This document shows, in pieces, positions 2,759 through 33,438 of a stretch of 33,650 bases of DNA. Each line of letters begins with the position of its first letter. Position 1 is the stretch's first letter. The DNA comes from a virus (lineage: Duplodnaviria > Caudoviricetes). The translations under genes and the position numbers were made by a program. Under the pieces are notes generated by a model. That model saw nothing but the letters and a program-made list of their open reading frames with translations, did not search any database and was not told where the DNA came from. The stretch is from positions 1 through 33,650 of the IMG/VR virus record IMGVR_UViG_3300032155_000027; one strand, given 5' to 3'.

Positions 2759-5458
2759 CTACTTCCGCTGGAACACCCAGCACTTGATGGACTTCTCCAG
2801 GAGGCAGGACCACACCGTGCGGTTCGCGTCCAGGAGCTTGTATTTCTTGCCGTGAGGCAGAAGCTTCTTGAGTTGCTGCATGTCGATGAGGGGCTGGCCT
2901 TTGGCTTGGGCGGCCTCGCGCACGTGGTTGAGGTTGATGGCCACGATGCCGGGCTCCTTTGAGTGGTTGAGGGTGTTGACCTCTTCCCTGTTCCGTTCGT
3001 TGGCCAGGTACTCGAACATCTCCCAAAACTGCTCCAGCAGGGGATGGTCAGCAGCGAGGCGCTGCTCGCGCACCTTGGCCCGGATGCGCAGGTACTCGGT
3101 GAGCCCTTCCGTGAGCTTTCCCTTCATGTCCGGGAAGACGACGGCCAGGGCCTCTCCGCATGCGGCGACCTGCGCGTGGTTCTTGATGATGCGCTCGTTC
3201 TTGAGGGACTCGTGCGCGGCGTACTGCGCCTCAAGGCGCTCGAAGGCCGCGGCGTAGGTGTCCAGGATCTTCCGTTCGTTGGCCAGGGCGACGGCCAGGA
3301 AGCCGCCCACGTCCGAGCTCGTCTGGCGCTCGAACCAGCGCGCCAATTCGCGCGTCCCTGCCTTGTGGTGGGCCTTGTCCGCGTGGCAGTGCACGATGCG
3401 CTGCAGGAGCGCTTCGGAGCCGTCCACCTCCGCGTTCTGTGAGATGAGGAGCGATCCCTGGAAGAGGTGCTCCTCGACGTCGTTGCTGCGCCTGGCCACG
3501 CCTAGGGTTCCCGTGCCGCGTCCGTTGAAAAACGGCTTGACCTCGTCGAAGCCGAACTGCCGTTGCTTCGCCCCCTGGTCCCCGTTGTCGCGGTCGGACT
3601 CGATGATGACCACGGGCAGGTTGGACACCTGGCTGAAAGCGCGGCGGCGTCCGGCTGGCGAGGACTTGAGAAGGTCAAAGCCCTCGTAGTCCTCGCGGCC
3701 GACGAGCTTCCAGAGGAACTCAAGGATGGTGGACTTGCCCGCGCCGGGCTCGCCGGTAAGCTCCAGGAAGGGGAAGGTCTTGTGCATGGCGCGGATCTGC
3801 TGGACGAAGAGGGAGCCGAACCAGAAGGCGAGCGTGGCCAGGCCCTGCCAGTGAAACGCCTTGGCGAAATTCACTATCCAGTCCTGGGAGAACTTGCCGT
3901 CGGTGTTGATGTAGACGCCGTTCAGGACGGTCTTGATGCCCACGCGGTTGATGTCGAAGTATCCGTTTTCGTTGACGGCTATTCGGCGGCCGTTGTGCCA
4001 CGCGTGCTGCTGGAAGATGTAGGCGGCCGTGTCCCGGTCGTAGCCCACGAATGGCAGGGCCTGTACCGTGGTCATGCGCTTGTTGAGCCAGCGGTCGCGC
4101 AGGATCTTGAGCTGTTGCATGTTTCCGTCGAATGTTCCGCCGCGGGAGCGGTTCAGGAGGGCCTTGTGGAACGCGTCCGGGCTGGTGATGGCCGTGCCTT
4201 CCAGCGCGATGATGTCGTCCGGCTGCTCGTTTGAGTAGGAGATGCCGAAGACGTAGCGCTGCTCGTCGACCAGGACGTCGCGCTCCATGTAGAGGAAGCG
4301 GGGGTGGATGTTCGAGATTTGGAGGATGTCGCAATGCTGCTTGAAGAGGTCGCGCCCGTCCTTGGACTTCAACGCGCCCTCGATAGGATTCTCTCCCGCG
4401 ACGGCCTCTCCGGACTCAGCCTTCGCCGCGCAGTAGGCCCCGGCCGCAACGGCGAGATCCTTCTCGAAGGCGGAGGGCAGGGTGATGGAGTAGATGGCGT
4501 TGCGGAAGTCGATGAGGAAGGACATGCGCCTGTTGCGCACGTAGTAGTGGTACGCCTTCTCCTCGACCGTCTCGGCCATGTAGAGGCGGCCGTGGTAGAG
4601 GCGCTCGGAGATGAAGGCGTCGTTGATCTTCTGCTCGCGCCAGAGATCGTCCCAGTCCTTGCCGTCCGGTAGGAGCAGCACCGTGGCCAGCTCGCCCATT
4701 TCCTTGAGGCGCTTGTGGTGGGCGCGGGCGTACTTCTTCCCGGCCGCGTCCGCGTCCAGGGCGATGACCCACCGAATGCCCTTGCCCTTGTGCAAGGCGA
4801 CGAAGGCCTCGGGGAAGTGGTTGCAGGAAAAGGCCGCCGCCGCCTTCTGCCCGGCGTGATTGAGGGCGATGGCGTGGAAGATGCCCTCCACGAGGAAGCA
4901 GCGGTCGCCCTGCTCCAGGGCCTGGTCAGGGGGCGACCACACGTCGCCGCGGAAGAGCGTCCCGTCGTCCTTGCGCGTCCCGCCGAAATGGGCTTTCTGC
5001 CCGTCCTTCTTGGTGCGCCCGATGAGGCGCTCCCAGTAGCGGGTGCGGGCTTCGTCCAGATAGAAGCGGATCGTGGGCACGTGCTCCGACGTGCCGGGCA
5101 CGGCCCAGGCCGCCTGCTCATACCAGCCGCGGATGCGCGAAAGATCGAAGCCGCGGTCGAGCCCGAGGTAGGCGTCTGCCGTGGCGTGGCGGTTCTCTTC
5201 GGTCGGTGGGTAGCGGTTGGCGAAGTCGGCGAAGATGTCGGGCAGGGCCTCGCGCACGGACTCCTCAAAGCCGCACTTGTTGAGCCTCTCGCAGCGTAGC
5301 ACCCAGGGCTGCTGCTTCCCGATGTAGAGGGTGCGCTTGCCGCAGCCGGGGCACTTCCCCTTGCGCAGGTAGTCCGTGGTGTCCTGAAATCCGAAGCCTG
5401 GATCGTCGCGCAGGGCGCGGATGATCTCTTCCGGGGAAATGTCCCTACGCGGTTGCAT
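2759..5458 (-). CDS. Zn-finger/TOPRIM primase-helicase (P4 alpha-like architecture), 899 aa
   Basis: N-terminal CPGC...CERLNKC, TOPRIM LVEGIFHA and ALDADAAG (DxD), Walker A GEPGAGKST, Walker B VVIIESD, and a C-terminal ~95-aa domain ending KCWVF. Start MQPRRDIS at 5458. Confidence 0.88.
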   Translation of the reverse strand: MQPRRDISPEEIIRALRDDPGFGFQDTTDYLRKGKCPGCGKRTLYIGKQQPWVLRCERLNKCGFEESVREALPDIFADFANRYPPTEENRHATADAYLGLDRGFDLSRIRGWYEQAAWAVPGTSEHVPTIRFYLDEARTRYWERLIGRTKKDGQKAHFGGTRKDDGTLFRGDVWSPPDQALEQGDRCFLVEGIFHAIALNHAGQKAAAAFSCNHFPEAFVALHKGKGIRWVIALDADAAGKKYARAHHKRLKEMGELATVLLLPDGKDWDDLWREQKINDAFISERLYHGRLYMAETVEEKAYHYYVRNRRMSFLIDFRNAIYSITLPSAFEKDLAVAAGAYCAAKAESGEAVAGENPIEGALKSKDGRDLFKQHCDILQISNIHPRFLYMERDVLVDEQRYVFGISYSNEQPDDIIALEGTAITSPDAFHKALLNRSRGGTFDGNMQQLKILRDRWLNKRMTTVQALPFVGYDRDTAAYIFQQHAWHNGRRIAVNENGYFDINRVGIKTVLNGVYINTDGKFSQDWIVNFAKAFHWQGLATLAFWFGSLFVQQIRAMHKTFPFLELTGEPGAGKSTILEFLWKLVGREDYEGFDLLKSSPAGRRRAFSQVSNLPVVIIESDRDNGDQGAKQRQFGFDEVKPFFNGRGTGTLGVARRSNDVEEHLFQGSLLISQNAEVDGSEALLQRIVHCHADKAHHKAGTRELARWFERQTSSDVGGFLAVALANERKILDTYAAAFERLEAQYAAHESLKNERIIKNHAQVAACGEALAVVFPDMKGKLTEGLTEYLRIRAKVREQRLAADHPLLEQFWEMFEYLANERNREEVNTLNHSKEPGIVAINLNHVREAAQAKGQPLIDMQQLKKLLPHGKKYKLLDANRTVWSCLLEKSIKCWVFQRK

Positions 5459-6423: not shown

Positions 6424-6435
6424 GGTGTTAGGGTG

Positions 6436-6495
6436 GGGCAAAATGCCCTAGCATGTCAAGGGCATTTTGTCAGATTTTCGTGGGGCAAAATATCC
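6436..6495. promoter_or_regulatory. Three putative repressor operators in the divergent cro/cI switch
   Basis: GGGCAAAATGCCC (6436-6448), GGGCATTTTGTCA (6460-6472) and GGGCAAAATATCC (6483-6495). TTGACA on the minus strand at 6454-6459 lies between the first two. Confidence 0.75.
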
Positions 6496-6509: not shown

Positions 6510-6806
6510 ATGGAAAACAAAGATAATTTTGAACAGGTGTTCATTAAATTGGTGGCGGAACGTGTTGAAGACGCAGGACTTTCCCACTCCGCATTCGGCA
6601 AGCGCGTGTTCGGGGAGGCCTCCGGCGTCCGTCTGTGGCGGGCCTGCCGCGACATGGAGAAGCGCCGCCGCAAATTAACCCTGGATGAGGCGTACAGAAT
6701 GGCGGAGGCCCTAGGGACGGACTTCCCGACCATGGTCTGGAATATCGCGCAGGCGGCGAGGTCGCGGGGGATGATCAGCGACGACCAAAATAAATTGCTG
6801 AAATAG
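6510..6806 (+). CDS. Short XRE-family immunity repressor (no S24 peptidase domain)
   Basis: GLSHSAFGKRVFG...RKLTLDEAYRMAEALG XRE-type HTH, 98 aa, divergent from the early operon and flanked by operators. Confidence 0.72.
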   Translation: MENKDNFEQVFIKLVAERVEDAGLSHSAFGKRVFGEASGVRLWRACRDMEKRRRKLTLDEAYRMAEALGTDFPTMVWNIAQAARSRGMISDDQNKLLK

Positions 6807-6854
6807 GGCAAATTGTCCCCATAGACCATTCCAAATAGGGGCAATTTGCCCTAT
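6803..6854. promoter_or_regulatory. Two further operators downstream of the repressor
   Basis: GGGCAAATTGTCC (6806-6818) and GGGCAATTTGCCC (6839-6851), together forming a ~20-bp imperfect inverted repeat upstream of ORF 6877. Confidence 0.72.
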
Positions 6855-6876: not shown

Positions 6877-7371
6877 ATGCAGATAAACATCAGCTCCGCC
6901 CACTATCATCATTGCCCGATGACCAGACTGTCTGAGGCCCTGGCCTGGCGCGACGTCATCACTACGTCGGTCGTTCCCGTCGCCCTGATTCACCCAGCGT
7001 CACCCGCGGCAATCCTCGGCCAAGCGCTTGATGGGATTGAAGTCGCTGCCGTCGCCGCGGCCATGTCCTGGGTAGGCGTGACCACGCGCATGATTCAGGA
7101 TGAGATGCGCGTCGGGCTCGGAATCAGCGAGGCCGTTGCAGTGCTCCTGGAGGCCACGGCCATGCGCATCCCCAGCATCAGCCGGGCCATCTTCGCCCGC
7201 TTCCTGGTTCCCCGCCGCAGAGTGCGCAGCGCCTACGGGACCGCTGGCTATCACTCCGGTCTGGTGTTCGGCTGCGACCTGCAGGACGCGATGGCCAGGA
7301 TGGAGAGAGAGGCGATGCGGCTGACCGGGGCTGACGCCCTGCCCCATGGCTATCACGTGCTTGCCGATTGA
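6877..7371 (+). CDS. Hypothetical protein (164 aa)
   Basis: GAGGAG RBS before the ATG at 6877; followed by a strong hairpin. No family recognised. Confidence 0.6.
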   Translation: MQINISSAHYHHCPMTRLSEALAWRDVITTSVVPVALIHPASPAAILGQALDGIEVAAVAAAMSWVGVTTRMIQDEMRVGLGISEAVAVLLEATAMRIPSISRAIFARFLVPRRRVRSAYGTAGYHSGLVFGCDLQDAMARMEREAMRLTGADALPHGYHVLAD

Positions 7372-7427
7372 TTTTTAAAAACAAGCGAAGCCGGGGTGTT
7401 ACGGTCGTTCGCCCCGGCTTCGCTTGT
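7372..7427. terminator. Probable intrinsic, possibly bidirectional, terminator
   Basis: Perfect 16-bp stem ACAAGCGAAGCCGGGG (7381-7396) / CCCCGGCTTCGCTTGT (7412-7427), followed by a T-run on the minus strand. It sits between convergent transcription units. Confidence 0.65.
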
Positions 7428-7431
7428 GCCA

Positions 7432-7759
7432 AATCCTTGCGCCTCCTTGCGCCCCGTTGCACTCCTCGCAAAAGCAGCCCTCCCCGTCGCGCCGCCCGCG
7501 CCGCCTAATCGCTCCCCCTTTGCCCCCCGCCCCGGCGTTGCAAAAATCGTCAAAAAAACGCCGAAGGTTTGGGGCGGAGGAGTGATTTTTTTCCGGGGGA
7601 GGCGCTCTTTCTTCTGGAGGAGGCATGCGGGTGGGCGTCGAGGCTGGCAGAAGCCCGAGAGCGCGCTGTACGGGCGCGGAAAAGGGAAACGGCCGGAGAT
7701 TTCTCTCCGGCCGCGGCGCTTTCTGTCCTGCCCTCGCTTCGCAAGGGAGCGCAAGGATT
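7432..7759. other. Non-coding cis element bounded by ~20-bp inverted repeats; contains a cos-like 19-mer (candidate cos and/or ori)
   Basis: AATCCTTGCGCCTCCTTGCG (7432-7451) matches the reverse complement of 7740-7759 at 18/20. Minus-strand 7475-7493 GGCGCGACGGGGAGGGCTG matches the P2 cohesive end at 13/19. Internal A/T tracts. Confidence 0.5.
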
Positions 7760-8492
7760 AGGTGGCCATGACGCCCCGCAGTCTGGCGGCGGCCAGGTCT
7801 GCATACTCGGGCGAGATCTCGATGCCCACATACCTCCTCCCGGTTCGCAGGCAGGCCTCCCCGGTGCTGCCGCTCCCGGCGAACGGATCGAGGACGATAC
7901 CGCCCGGCCGCGTCGTGGCCAGCAAATCTTCAAGGAGGGGGACGGGCTTCTCGGTCAGGTGAATCTTCCGCCCAGCGTTGACGCTGTGCCTATGGACGCC
8001 GGGGAAGCACGTGCGGCTATAGGTTCCCGGCTTGCCCTTGCTCCCGCAGATGACGAACTCCGCGTCCCGCTTGAAATCGCCCAGGGTGGGCCTGGCGCTC
8101 GGCTTGTGCCAGACGACGATGCCGCGCCACATCCACCCGGCTGCCTGGACGGCGTCGGTCATGGCCGGGAGCTGCCGCCAGTCCGTGAAGACCATGAGTC
8201 GCGCCCCGTCGTTGGAGATGCGCCAGCACTCCGCGAGCCACAGGGAGGCCCACAGGGTGAACGACCGCTGGTCGCGGTTGTCTCCCAACATGGCAGGGTA
8301 TGTCTTCTTCGTGTTGGACTGCTGGTACTTCTTCGCCGGGTCAGCCTGCCGCGCCCCGATGGTCATGCCGCCGGTCGAATAGGGCGGATCTGTGAGGATG
8401 GCGTCGGCCGTTCCGGCGGGCATGTCCCGCAGGATGGCCAGCGAGTCTCCGTGGTGCAGTTCAGCGCGTTCGGTCGAAAGGACAATGGACAT
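7758..8492 (-). CDS. N6-adenine/N4-cytosine DNA methyltransferase (beta class)
   Basis: Motif IV TDPPY precedes HLTEKP and motif I VLDPFAGSGST. AAGGAG RBS before the ATG at 8492. Confidence 0.92.
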   Translation of the reverse strand: MSIVLSTERAELHHGDSLAILRDMPAGTADAILTDPPYSTGGMTIGARQADPAKKYQQSNTKKTYPAMLGDNRDQRSFTLWASLWLAECWRISNDGARLMVFTDWRQLPAMTDAVQAAGWMWRGIVVWHKPSARPTLGDFKRDAEFVICGSKGKPGTYSRTCFPGVHRHSVNAGRKIHLTEKPVPLLEDLLATTRPGGIVLDPFAGSGSTGEACLRTGRRYVGIEISPEYADLAAARLRGVMAT

Positions 8493-30376: not shown

Positions 30377-30455
30377 CTTCTACGTACAGAAAAGTACGCT
30401 TTGACTTGACAAGTGGAGCTGCTTCCTATTGTGTCTTTTTCGGAGGTCGGACACC

Positions 30456-30698
30456 ATGCGCATCATCTGCGACAGGTGCAAGAGCAAGGCCCGGATCGAG
30501 ACGACGCGGGAGATAACCCCAGGCTTCCGCCGCCTCTACTGCGCCTGCCGCAACGTCGAATGCGGGCACACCTTCGTCATGGATCTGACCTTCTCCCACA
30601 CCCTCTCCCCTTCCGCCCTCGATCTCCCCACCGAAACGCGCGACGCCCTGCGGGATTGCTCCAGCAGGGCGCAGGCCAGGGCGCTCTTCGCAGACTAG
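30456..30698 (+). CDS. ogr: Ogr/Delta-family zinc-finger late activator
   Basis: CDRC...LYCACRNVECGHTFV...SHTLSPSA; GGAGG RBS before the ATG at 30456. Confidence 0.9.
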   Translation: MRIICDRCKSKARIETTREITPGFRRLYCACRNVECGHTFVMDLTFSHTLSPSALDLPTETRDALRDCSSRAQARALFAD

Positions 30699-31147
30699 GC
30701 CCCGGATGAGTTCTCGACCGTCACGCGGTCGATGTAGTAGCGCGCGGCCGAGGTGATGAAGCCGGAGCGGGTCATGCCCTCGGCCTTGGCGACGCGGTCG
30801 ATGCGCGCCAAGACGTGCGGGGCCAGGGAGATGTTGATGCGCACCGGAGGCTCCCCTGCTGGGGGCACGGGCACGGCCTGCAGGATGACGCCGGGGTGCA
30901 ACTCCTCCCCGTCCTCGGCCGCCGCGGCCTCGGCCTTGGCTCTGGCCTCCGCGAAATCGGACGGCGCGGGCACGGTGTCGCCGTCCGCGCGCATGACGTC
31001 CAGGAACCCATCAAGCGCCTCCTGGGCCATGGCGAAGGCCTCCGCGAAGGTGTTCCCCTGGGTTTGGCAGCCCGGCAGGTCCGGGAAGGTTACGGCGAAG
31101 GCCCCCGCCTTCTCCTCGGCCGGATGAAAGACCGCGATGTAGTGCAT
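30695..31147 (-). CDS. hicB: HicB antitoxin with C-terminal RHH
   Basis: FAVTFPDLPGCQTQG.T..EA..MAQEAL...VPAPS; VRINISL...RIDRVA...TRSGFI. Confidence 0.92.
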   Translation of the reverse strand: MHYIAVFHPAEEKAGAFAVTFPDLPGCQTQGNTFAEAFAMAQEALDGFLDVMRADGDTVPAPSDFAEARAKAEAAAAEDGEELHPGVILQAVPVPPAGEPPVRINISLAPHVLARIDRVAKAEGMTRSGFITSAARYYIDRVTVENSSGA

Positions 31148-31177
31148 GATTCCTCCCCGTCCGGGGAGTGAAGCCGC

Positions 31178-31366
31178 CTAGCGCAGCTTCACCCCAGACG
31201 CCTTCTCGATGCTCTTGACGTTCTTGATCCACAGGTCCTTGACCGGATGCTGCACAGTGACCTTTCCGGGCTTGCTCGGATGCTTGAAGTACCAATGGTC
31301 GCCGCGCGTTCCCACGTGGAACCATCCGTCCTCTTCGAGCTTCCTGATGACCGTCTTGCTGTCCAC
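31178..31366 (-). CDS. hicA: HicA mRNA interferase toxin
   Basis: LEEDGW...RGDHWYFKHPSKPGKVTVQHPVKDL; GTG start with GGAGG RBS. Confidence 0.92.
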   Translation of the reverse strand: MDSKTVIRKLEEDGWFHVGTRGDHWYFKHPSKPGKVTVQHPVKDLWIKNVKSIEKASGVKLR

Positions 31367-31696: not shown

Positions 31697-31943
31697 GGGG
31701 TTCCTCCTTCCGACGGAGCGCGGCGCGCATGCGCTCCACGTCGCCGGTCAGCCAGACGAGCTGCTGGTGCAGGTGATTGAGCGCTGTGGGCGAAAGGCGG
31801 CCCGTGCGCACGGCTTGCCGCAAGGTCACGGACGCGGCCCTGAATTCATCCGCCAGCGCCAGCAGGTCGTCGCTCATCCGCTCCATCCCGGCGACAACGG
31901 CGAAGACGTCCGTGTACTCTGGGTTCTGGTGTTCACTGCTCAT
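31686..31943 (-). CDS. Small helical hypothetical protein
   Basis: GAGGAGG RBS; ATGA overlap with the upstream gene. Confidence 0.62.
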   Translation of the reverse strand: MSSEHQNPEYTDVFAVVAGMERMSDDLLALADEFRAASVTLRQAVRTGRLSPTALNHLHQQLVWLTGDVERMRAALRRKEEPHGS

Positions 31944-32986
31944 GCCCGCGCCTCCTCGTGGGTTTCGGTTTCCGGACGCTCGCCGCGTGCGGAAGCCCCA
32001 CCCTGTACAGCATCCTCTCCATTTGCGCTAGGTGCTTCTAATATTTCAACATTTCTTGAAATGTTGATTTCTTGATTGCAGAAAAACACCCAACATTTCA
32101 GGGTCTTGCCCATATGCCCGCTGTTCATGGCCTTGTTGGCCTCCACCAGCTTGCGCGGGGTGCTGGCGCGCAGCAGCAGCCGCAGCTCCGGCGCGTCGAA
32201 GACGAAGAGCCCGCGCGCCTGCGAGGCGCGCATGAACTGCGGCAGGTTCACGGCCAGCAGCGCCGGGGTGCGCGAGTGATTGAGCCAGCCCGGTCCCTGG
32301 CCGTCCGGTCCCTTCTGGGAGTTCAGCAGGTCGAACTGCTGCCAGAAGGCCGTGACCAGGGCCGGTTCCTCCTCCTCGCCCTTGGCGAAGGCCTCGTACT
32401 GCCGCACGGCCTTGGGGCTCGCCTTGCGCCCCTTGCGGAGCAGGGCGTCGTTCTGCTCGATCACGAAGCGCGCGGCCGCGGCCACTGCCCCTCCGGGTTG
32501 CTCATTCCCCGTGAGGTGGAAACGCGAGAGCACCTGCCGGAGCAGCGCCTGGCGCGGCAGCTCCGCGAGCATGGCCCAGAGGGCCACCAGCTCGTGCAGC
32601 TCGTCCATGCTCGAATTGGACGGTCCGAGCCCGCCCAGGTTCTCCAGCACGTCCAGCACCCACTTGCGGAACTCCTTGGCCCGATCCGTCCTGGCCAGCA
32701 TGGCCAGGAGATGGCATCCGCGAGGGGAGAAGACGCGGACTTCCTGCGGCCCGCCTGCCGTCTCCACCGTGACCAGGGCGGTCATGTCCTCGCTGAACTC
32801 GTCGGCGTGTCGATCGAAGAGTCTTTTGATTGCCTTCTTCGCAAGGGGGGTGTCAGTTTGACCCCCCCCTTTGGTGTATCCGAGGGCAAGTGCGATCTGG
32901 CTAGCGCGGAGCCAAGGAACCCCTTCGCGGTCGAAGACCTGCATGGGCACGTCTTGAAAGAGGATGGCTTCCGGAAGATGGGTCAT
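31940..32986 (-). CDS. Bro-N/Ant-type antirepressor-like protein with ORF6C-like middle and a primase-C-terminal-like domain
   Basis: WLRASQIALALGY...DRHADEF...VRVFSPRGCHLLAMLART..AKEFRKWVLDVLE. The C-terminal domain aligns with the primase C-terminus. ATG at 32986 (ATGA overlap, GGAGG RBS). Confidence 0.8.
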   Translation of the reverse strand: MTHLPEAILFQDVPMQVFDREGVPWLRASQIALALGYTKGGGQTDTPLAKKAIKRLFDRHADEFSEDMTALVTVETAGGPQEVRVFSPRGCHLLAMLARTDRAKEFRKWVLDVLENLGGLGPSNSSMDELHELVALWAMLAELPRQALLRQVLSRFHLTGNEQPGGAVAAAARFVIEQNDALLRKGRKASPKAVRQYEAFAKGEEEEPALVTAFWQQFDLLNSQKGPDGQGPGWLNHSRTPALLAVNLPQFMRASQARGLFVFDAPELRLLLRASTPRKLVEANKAMNSGHMGKTLKCWVFFCNQEINISRNVEILEAPSANGEDAVQGGASARGERPETETHEEARA

Positions 32987-33438
32987 GACTGCACCTCCTG
33001 CTTCGCCAAATGATCTACAGAGGAATACCGTCTCCCGAATTTTCGGGGGACGGTCATCGAGCGGGATTCCCATGTGGAGTTTGACGAGCCGAAAGTTCGG
33101 CTCGTTGAATACACCGACGCCATACTCTTAGGGAACATCGGCCGAATTTTCCGCCGATGTCCTATCACGCGCCGCGCCTCCGGCTTCCGCGAGCGGAAGA
33201 CCAGGGAGTAGAGGCCAGACTCGGAGATGATGAGCATGTTGGGGTTGCCGCGATTTCCATCAGCAATGCTGATGGTATTCTTCTCGTCATCCTCCAATTC
33301 ACTGACGGCCTGCGATGGGTTTCCTAGGTCCAAGACGTTGCACACGTCCTTGGCCACGAACCAGGGATTACCCTCGTGGTCCGTGCGCACGCGCACCAAG
33401 GAGTCATCAAAAGCGTAAGGCACGAGGCTGGCGGTCAT
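32983..33438 (-). CDS. Bro-N family protein, domain cut short after RSRKPEARR and continued by a palindrome array
   Basis: PWFVAKDVCNVL...IISESGLYSLVFRSRKPEA is classical Bro-N. The usual final F..WV..EVLP helix is missing, but the frame stays open to a coupled stop. Confidence 0.75.
   Translation of the reverse strand: MTASLVPYAFDDSLVRVRTDHEGNPWFVAKDVCNVLDLGNPSQAVSELEDDEKNTISIADGNRGNPNMLIISESGLYSLVFRSRKPEARRVIGHRRKIRPMFPKSMASVYSTSRTFGSSNSTWESRSMTVPRKFGRRYSSVDHLAKQEVQS
33027..33160. repeat. Array of three palindromes with common core CCGAA-NN-TTC(G/C)G at 54/53-nt period
   Basis: ACCGTCTCCCGAA-TT-TTCGGGGGACGGT (33027-33054), ACGAGCCGAA-AG-TTCGGCTCGT (33084-33105) and ACATCGGCCGAA-TT-TTCCGCCGATGT (33135-33160). 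Confidence 0.9.

Follow-up and report, generated by a model that had tools for sequence, protein, structure and literature searches.

The window, as we call the whole stretch of DNA analyzed here (33,650 nucleotides), is the record of a P2-like prophage with an integrase, a CII-like gene, a primase, tail genes, a portal gene, Ogr, and HicAB. At 31940..32986, on the minus strand, lies an intact fusion gene whose 348-amino-acid product joins a Bro-N domain, a helical middle domain, and a predicted winged-helix domain, an architecture shared by relatives. An AGGAGG sits 7 nt ahead of the ATG. Among named proteins, the closest comes from Desulfovibrio sp. X2 and is labeled a "prophage antirepressor" (83% identity over the query region), and the window's relatives, this protein included, point to a host in the Desulfovibrionales. 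An assembly chimera could be ruled out for this gene, because 17 of 23 protein clusters (the window's own protein counted) combine Bro-N with the same tail; 4 of the 23 are Bro-less forms of 199 amino acids.

The Bro-N domain (residues 18 to 113; 32648..32935, minus strand) was recognized by Pfam (PF02498, 40.1 bits against a cut-off of 25.6), by PHROGs, and by alignment, and it belongs to a phrog_5060-type subfamily. The original prediction had called the protein Bro-N/ORF6C-like and antirepressor-like. Bro-N holds; ORF6C has no Pfam match, since a Pfam search of the middle region (32363 to 32617) at E ≤ 5 returned no family, ORF6C included; and the designation as an antirepressor comes from PHROG labels only. 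The unnamed helical middle domain (residues about 124 to 200; 32387..32617, minus strand), delimited by alignment of relatives, also forms the N-terminal part of Bro-less proteins of 195 to 199 amino acids whose genes directly follow the primase in relatives. It is followed by a domain that we call the spare domain (residues 210 to 301; 32084..32359, minus strand), which is a paralog of the primase C terminus and has no Pfam or NCBIfam family. Beyond it, an AT-rich palindromic insert in the tail (32040..32078; GC3 of 0.24) is lineage specific and missing from L001, L002, L003, and L042. As 32046 to 32075 is missing in all four relatives aligned, 32046 to 32099, which had been proposed as a binding site, is a poor candidate for one.

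The head of the window's fusion appears to have been replaced. Upstream lies a second Bro-N open reading frame (ORF) (32983..33438, minus strand; Pfam Bro-N), whose residues 1 to 90 share 93% identity with residues 1 to 90 of the L001 fusion, and a blastn comparison with L001 leaves a gap at 33169 to 32611. These alignments indicate that residues 1 to 90 of the upstream ORF are the original fusion head, severed by an insert of ∼560 bp, and that the head was exchanged in frame for one of a different subfamily than that of L001, the Bro-N heads of the fusions falling into two subfamilies. The old head thus remains at the exchange (32611 to 33169) as an ORF of its own, its stop overlapping the new start codon. 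Inside the insert, three palindromes of the type CCGAA-NN-TTCGG (33035 to 33153) are spaced 54 and 53 bp apart, and the minus strand of this stretch has a folding z score of −3.6. They may serve as operators, belong to an RNA leader, or be hairpin-coded repeats; no similar stretch was present in the loci that we fetched. An Rfam search of the window gave no match. The RNA family sRNA-Xcc1 (RF02221) matched upstream of the Bro-N fusion genes of three relatives (L002, 1051 to 1133; L003, 573 to 656; L046, 4541 to 4624) and had no match in the window or L001.

The primase whose C terminus the spare domain resembles is an 899-amino-acid protein encoded at 2759..5458 on the minus strand. By Pfam, phrog_1139, and 34% identity to phiCTX ORF37, it belongs to the same family as that phage's primase. 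Its domains are, in order, a weakly matched Zn ribbon, Toprim, a Cch-like AAA+ helicase, and a winged helix (2771..3040, minus strand), which from the structural model, and from an allele that tracks a repeat in five relatives (see below), is likely the origin-reading domain. We modeled the C-terminal 503 residues (pLDDT, 91.6). The best Foldseek match of the helicase half was SCCmec Cch (5dgk; E = 2 × 10^−12, TM score of 0.60, 539 columns), whereas NrS-1 and poxviral D5/E5 matched at E values of 10^−6 to 2 × 10^−3 with TM scores of 0.30 to 0.36, and P4 alpha itself was not among the rows. Pfam likewise found neither D5_N nor Pox_D5 (at E ≤ 0.01 for the whole primase and E ≤ 5 for its C-terminal half), nor any match to DUF927 or HTH_56, which are present only in neighboring clusters of the structure atlas, in 14 to 22% of members. 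On this modeling, the primase appears to combine an AAA+ helicase with a C-terminal winged helix as the Cch and SaPI Rep initiator-helicases do. The original prediction had argued from P4 alpha; because the Cch match far exceeds those to D5-type helicases, we treat P4 alpha as an analogy and not as the family.

We then compared the spare domain with the primase C terminus. Residues 210 to 301 of the fusion protein (32359 to 32084) align with residues 807 to 896 of the primase (3040 to 2771) with 32 of 92 positions identical (35%; BLASTP E = 2 × 10^−15) and a single gap of 2 amino acids, so the nearly gapless alignment claimed at the outset is real, and the motifs quoted for it were all found in place. 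The local score of 153 compares with 24.1 ± 4.0 (maximum, 45) in 5,000 shuffles of the domain, about 32 standard deviations above, and with a maximum of 60 in 1,000 shuffles of the whole protein, which rules out chance similarity. A profile-profile comparison agreed (probability of 100%, E = 4 × 10^−40), and the spare domain matches positions 780 to 887 of the 895 in phrog_1139. Two further families, phrog_20645 and phrog_18886 (156 and 269 positions; function unannotated), end in this same winged-helix domain, a tie to the primase that is not annotated. At the DNA level, blastn found no similarity between the two regions (best E value, 0.18), and the spare copy is therefore old.

An AlphaFold2 model of the spare domain (pLDDT, 90.5) has helices at residues 10 to 23, 49 to 58, and 66 to 73 and strands at 45 to 47, 81 to 89, and 96 to 102, and thus the predicted fold is a winged helix of three helices with a C-terminal beta-hairpin wing. 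Foldseek with the lone domain gave no match at E ≤ 0.001, and no PDB sequence matched significantly in a profile search. The top rows of a wide structural search were mostly winged helices (Z scores up to 5.7), among them the C termini of SaPIbov1 Rep (Z of 5.2, root mean square deviation [RMSD] of 4.1, 90 residues aligned) and Cch (Z of 4.5, RMSD of 2.8, 71 aligned); both scores lie below the tool's trust level, and we read them as evidence of fold class only. The spare copy starts at the domain boundary and retains the conserved motifs. Net charge over helix 3 and the wing has a median of +6 in 31 spare copies and of +6 in 35 primases. Purifying selection on the copy was borne out by dN/dS values of 0.20 to 0.46 in 14 of 15 pairs, which are not independent, with one pair saturated; the helical middle domain gave 0.12 to 0.85.

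To see how widely such copies occur, we surveyed virus records and host genomes. A second copy was present in 7 of 10 near-complete virus records, nine of them chosen by primase query and two of these also by fusion query. Among 401 Desulfovibrionales genomes, 32 had a match and, among the 12 candidates scored per genome, 12 had a copy in a small ORF and 20 of the 32 had no second copy; the small-frame matches G271:C6/C9, G166:C1/C5, and G285:C33 were left out of this scoring, and some of these genomes carry the same phages as the virus records. All 12 small-ORF copies share a contig with a primase, 9 of them within 3 kb downstream, and no copy in the genomes examined lacked the primase family on its contig. 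Co-occurrence with this primase family was found in both data sets. In the Desulfovibrionales, the copies stand alone, starting at or close to the primase stop, or lie behind Bro-N; elsewhere they occur as P22AR-N fusions. Small-frame matches in G235, G269, G271:C7, and G166:C2 were rejected as spare copies because they are broken primases; broken or frameshifted primases occur in G166, G235, G269, and G271, and G166 and G271 each gave three matches.

Farther afield the copy is rarer. It was found at 3 of 76 more distant primase loci (one with Bro-N and two with P22_AR_N), whose flanks vary in length, and the 38 isolate phage records contained no copy at E ≤ 0.01. When 1.84 billion representatives were searched with a profile, 696 matched, of which the best 150 comprised 50 full primases, 56 primase fragments, 28 short or unclear proteins, and 16 proteins with other N termini, some of these probably chimeric. 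Odd fusions (to AstA, MlaD, tape measure, and sheath proteins) resembled chimeras or decay and were kept out of the trees. Atlas clusters whose heads are P22_AR_N (70 members) or Rha (64 members), at a TM score of 0.76, are leads; we sought a center outside the Desulfovibrionales and obtained none. Given its absence from 20 of 32 genomes, 73 of 76 distant loci, and 38 of 38 isolate records, we infer that the spare gene is dispensable. P0011 and P0113 are, in turn, a protein with two tandem copies of the winged helix and one with a weak FtsK-gamma-like head.

The spare copies do not share one origin. In a tree of 68 rows and 98 columns, a size at which many forks stay unresolved, they did not form one clade but required 8 changes, at least 4 of them forced by starred branches. 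Monophyly of the spare copies appeared in 0 of 200 bootstrap trees and was rejected by the AU test (P = 0.0045), which rules out a single origin and indicates that the copies arose independently several times. The window's copy falls in a group that is sister to the primases of G222, G009, and G010 (support, 90/93), and a quick tree without the L018/L019-type primases recovered the same sister grouping (SH-aLRT, 99). The window's own primase sits in another starred clade and ranks only 11th of 89 among primase C termini matching the spare domain. The idea that the phage had copied its own primase therefore stands as far as the family goes and fails for the individual gene; together with the missing DNA similarity, clade and rank rule out that the copy is a recent duplicate of the resident primase's C terminus. 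G222 differs, in that the gene directly after its primase is identical to the end of that primase at 55 of 90 positions (61%) and is nearest to it, the trace expected of a tandem duplication of the 3′ end.

We next looked for origins with a scan for opposing short repeats, which is uncalibrated and in which coding DNA of the window reached scores similar to those of weak arrays. Its top hit in phiCTX was the annotated R3 repeat region (35100 to 35390; L108, 13101 to 13391), where R3 repeats with IHF sites and GGTAAT six times in each direction have the candidate-origin layout; this region is likely the phiCTX origin. In relatives of the window, the common layout is an alternating purine-pyrimidine tract followed by inward-pointing paired 6-mers around AT-rich spacers. 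At 11 loci (L018, L019, L047, L086, L091, L024, L123, L088, L089, L090, and L122), such an array is no more than about 200 bp away from the spare gene. In L118, L116, and L080, it precedes the Bro-N fusion by 1.1 to 1.4 kb, and in L144 it lies directly upstream of the fusion; a weak array lies about 3.5 kb from the spare-domain fusion of G013. Array scores were weak in L019, L047, L088, L022, and L116, and the array of L122 was read by eye. The scan placed no array in L140, L155, G002, G003, or the window; the records of G002 and G003, like the window, stop about 1.3 kb or less upstream of the fusion gene. Most relatives with sufficient flanking sequence have the spare gene beside such an array. 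Arrays with lineage-specific words also start within about 200 bp after the primase in L132, L141, L142, L145 to L148, L152, L161, L164, L190, L198 to L200, L203, and L204, and these arrays after distant primases offer a resource for decoding how winged helices specify iterons.

The AT-rich opposing-repeat arrays are likely replication origins, which indicates likely origins for the phiCTX-ORF37 primase family. SaPI origins are described as opposing short iterons around AT-rich DNA, often directly after the gene, and SaPI Reps as reading opposing iterons with a C-terminal winged helix (PMC9371898). Integrase arm sites do not explain the arrays in general: in L019, L091, and L024, about 5 kb or more separates them from the integrase, and the repeat does not follow the integrase region. 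The arm-site reading may still apply where arrays lie near a tRNA (L116 and L118) or attP (phiCTX).

Five near-identical phages provide a natural test of what reads these repeats. The helicases of G009, G010, G017, G362, and G229 are 98 to 100% identical over 400 residues, and among them the primase winged helix has two alleles (77% identical) that track the repeats GGTTCA (G009 and G362) and GGTGTG (G010, G017, and G229); the repeats show no such link with the integrase region. Since a change of allele goes with a change of repeat, we interpret the arrays as origins read by the primase winged helix, and the pattern supports the winged helix as the origin reader, lending indirect support to the original prediction of an origin-binding-type domain. 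The spare genes of these phages fall into two families, 32 to 40% identical, that assort independently of allele and repeat. Likewise, G391 and G409 have an identical primase winged helix and the same repeat, and their spare domains are 25% identical. This independent assortment argues against a spare domain that simply reads the resident repeat by the primase's code, although it fits a role unrelated to the resident origin as well. With two repeat codes and two spare families on near-identical backgrounds, the five phages make origin recognition, copy control, and phage-phage exclusion testable.

What, then, might the spare domain do? Our best guess for the fusion protein is a regulator of copy number or replication, one of the roles that the original prediction had offered. 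More specifically, the reading that we favor, at slightly less than even confidence, is that the fusion tail is an optional, Cnr-like damper of replication initiation that works through the helicase or through loose origin contact. By this account, the spare domain would act on the surface by which the helicase docks its winged helix or dimerizes, or would bind the origin loosely, and would so lower hexamer loading and damp initiation. Tandem duplication of the primase 3′ end would have left a small gene between primase and origin, which would later have acquired Bro-N heads, the window's head having been exchanged once more. Adjacency to the origin is expected from this history alone, since a duplicated primase end lands beside the origin that follows the primase; spare gene and origin may also have traveled together as a unit. 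That the effect would be damping and not helping is taken from the analogy with Cnr.

That analogy has clear bounds. Regulation by winged-helix homo- and heterodimers of P4 alpha and Cnr was reportedly described by Yeo et al. in 2002. P4 alpha is described as a primase-helicase that binds the origin through a C-terminal winged helix (PMC4889955) and Cnr as the product of a small linked gene controlling copy number (PMC8628076), and the phages studied here would resemble P4 in both respects. Unlike P4, however, the window's helicase fits Cch better than D5/SF3, and unlike Cnr, the small gene is a plainly alignable duplicate from the primase's domain family that has arisen several times and is found downstream of the primase or fused to antirepressor heads; no cnr-named family was among the Pfam, PHROG, and family-search matches. 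With Cch and SaPI Rep the primase shares the AAA+ helicase and C-terminal winged helix, and the candidate arrays share the SaPI origin layout as given in PMC9371898, but here the helicase is fused to a Toprim primase in P2-like phages, and a free winged-helix paralog is not described in the available part of that account. Like other Bro-N, P22AR-N, and Rha antirepressors, the fusion has a Bro-N head above cut-off and belongs to a set with exchangeable heads and tails; unlike them, its tail is a replication-initiator domain. Both modular Bro-N proteins and initiators controlled through a second winged helix are kinds already known, and a full-text literature search, whose coverage excluded most subscription papers, found no paper on a fusion of Bro-N with a primase winged helix.

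Two alternatives seem unlikely to us, and about equally so. In the first, akin to the inhibitor of related phages originally suggested, the spare domain would act against related phages whose origin specificities differ, reading their repeats or poisoning their helicase, and would so block their replication while sparing that of its own phage. Such a weapon would account for a spare domain nearer to other phages' primases than to the resident one in 16 of 17 pairs, for a cassette swapped between unrelated families at one locus (the five-phage panel; G391 versus G409), and for a patchy presence like that of conflict genes. Divergence from the own primase is, however, also expected from age, the copy of G222 is the one nearest to its own primase, and no target is predicted. 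In the second, the domain would be a C-terminal module on Bro-N, P22AR-N, and Rha heads that serves transcription or antirepression and has no role in replication, its origin linkage being historical. The varied heads (two Bro-N subfamilies, P22_AR_N, and an Rha cluster in the atlas) and the sRNA-Xcc1 match upstream of the gene in three relatives agree with this, as does the modular shuffling of such heads, which is said to be well known since Iyer et al. in 2002. It sits poorly with the many headless copies directly after the primase and with the constant presence of the primase family on the contig in the genomes examined, and it leaves the repeated capture of one replication domain unexplained.

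We consider it improbable that the spare domain instead aids origin opening or helicase loading. Stand-alone copies at or near the primase stop adjoin arrays, and one SaPI Rep discriminates poorly between origins in vitro, for which its authors allow a missing specificity factor (PMC9371898), leaving room for such a helper; yet most phages with this primase have no spare copy, and the spare copy does not vary together with the resident repeat as one would expect of a helper. Least probable is a decoy for a host defense that senses the primase-helicase C terminus, since, even if the copy starts at the domain boundary with its motifs kept, we know of no host sensor of that domain, the copy keeps its basic DNA-facing surface, and a decoy would have no need of DNA-binding heads.

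Returning to the Cnr-like damper, if it is correct, the P4 Cnr idea would extend to a large type of replicon in P2-like phages that has received little study, and the use of a second winged helix to control an initiator would have evolved several times via domain duplication. A broader claim, which we hold a little more tentatively than the damper itself, is that phages with Cch-like primase-helicases have given rise to a widespread, convergent class of replication controllers, having time and again duplicated the origin-reading winged helix into an exchangeable origin-side cassette, alone or on antirepressor heads, for copy number or for shutdown of rivals whose origins carry other repeat codes.

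Other noncoding and regulatory features of the window were recorded as well. The original prediction had also named 7432 to 7759 as a binding site. This stretch lies in a conserved noncoding element (7370..7780), whose core has phased TTGC repeats and is found in the window and 12 viral loci, and which, compared by eye, has the GCGGAGG.GTG and nearby GCA-type repeats of the annotated phiCTX cosR region. The element is thus cos-like and probably not the origin. It has the immunity region on one side and the end of the tail operon on the other and, in contrast to phiCTX, is remote from the portal gene. Repeated operator-like sites of the GGGGCAAA type, which include a 20-bp inverted pair, lie at 6433 to 6491 and 6801 to 6854 around divergent genes of 98 amino acids. 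At 30429 to 31366, the Ogr activator directly follows the portal gene and is convergent with the HicAB toxin-antitoxin pair, a gene order common to the window, L001, and L002.
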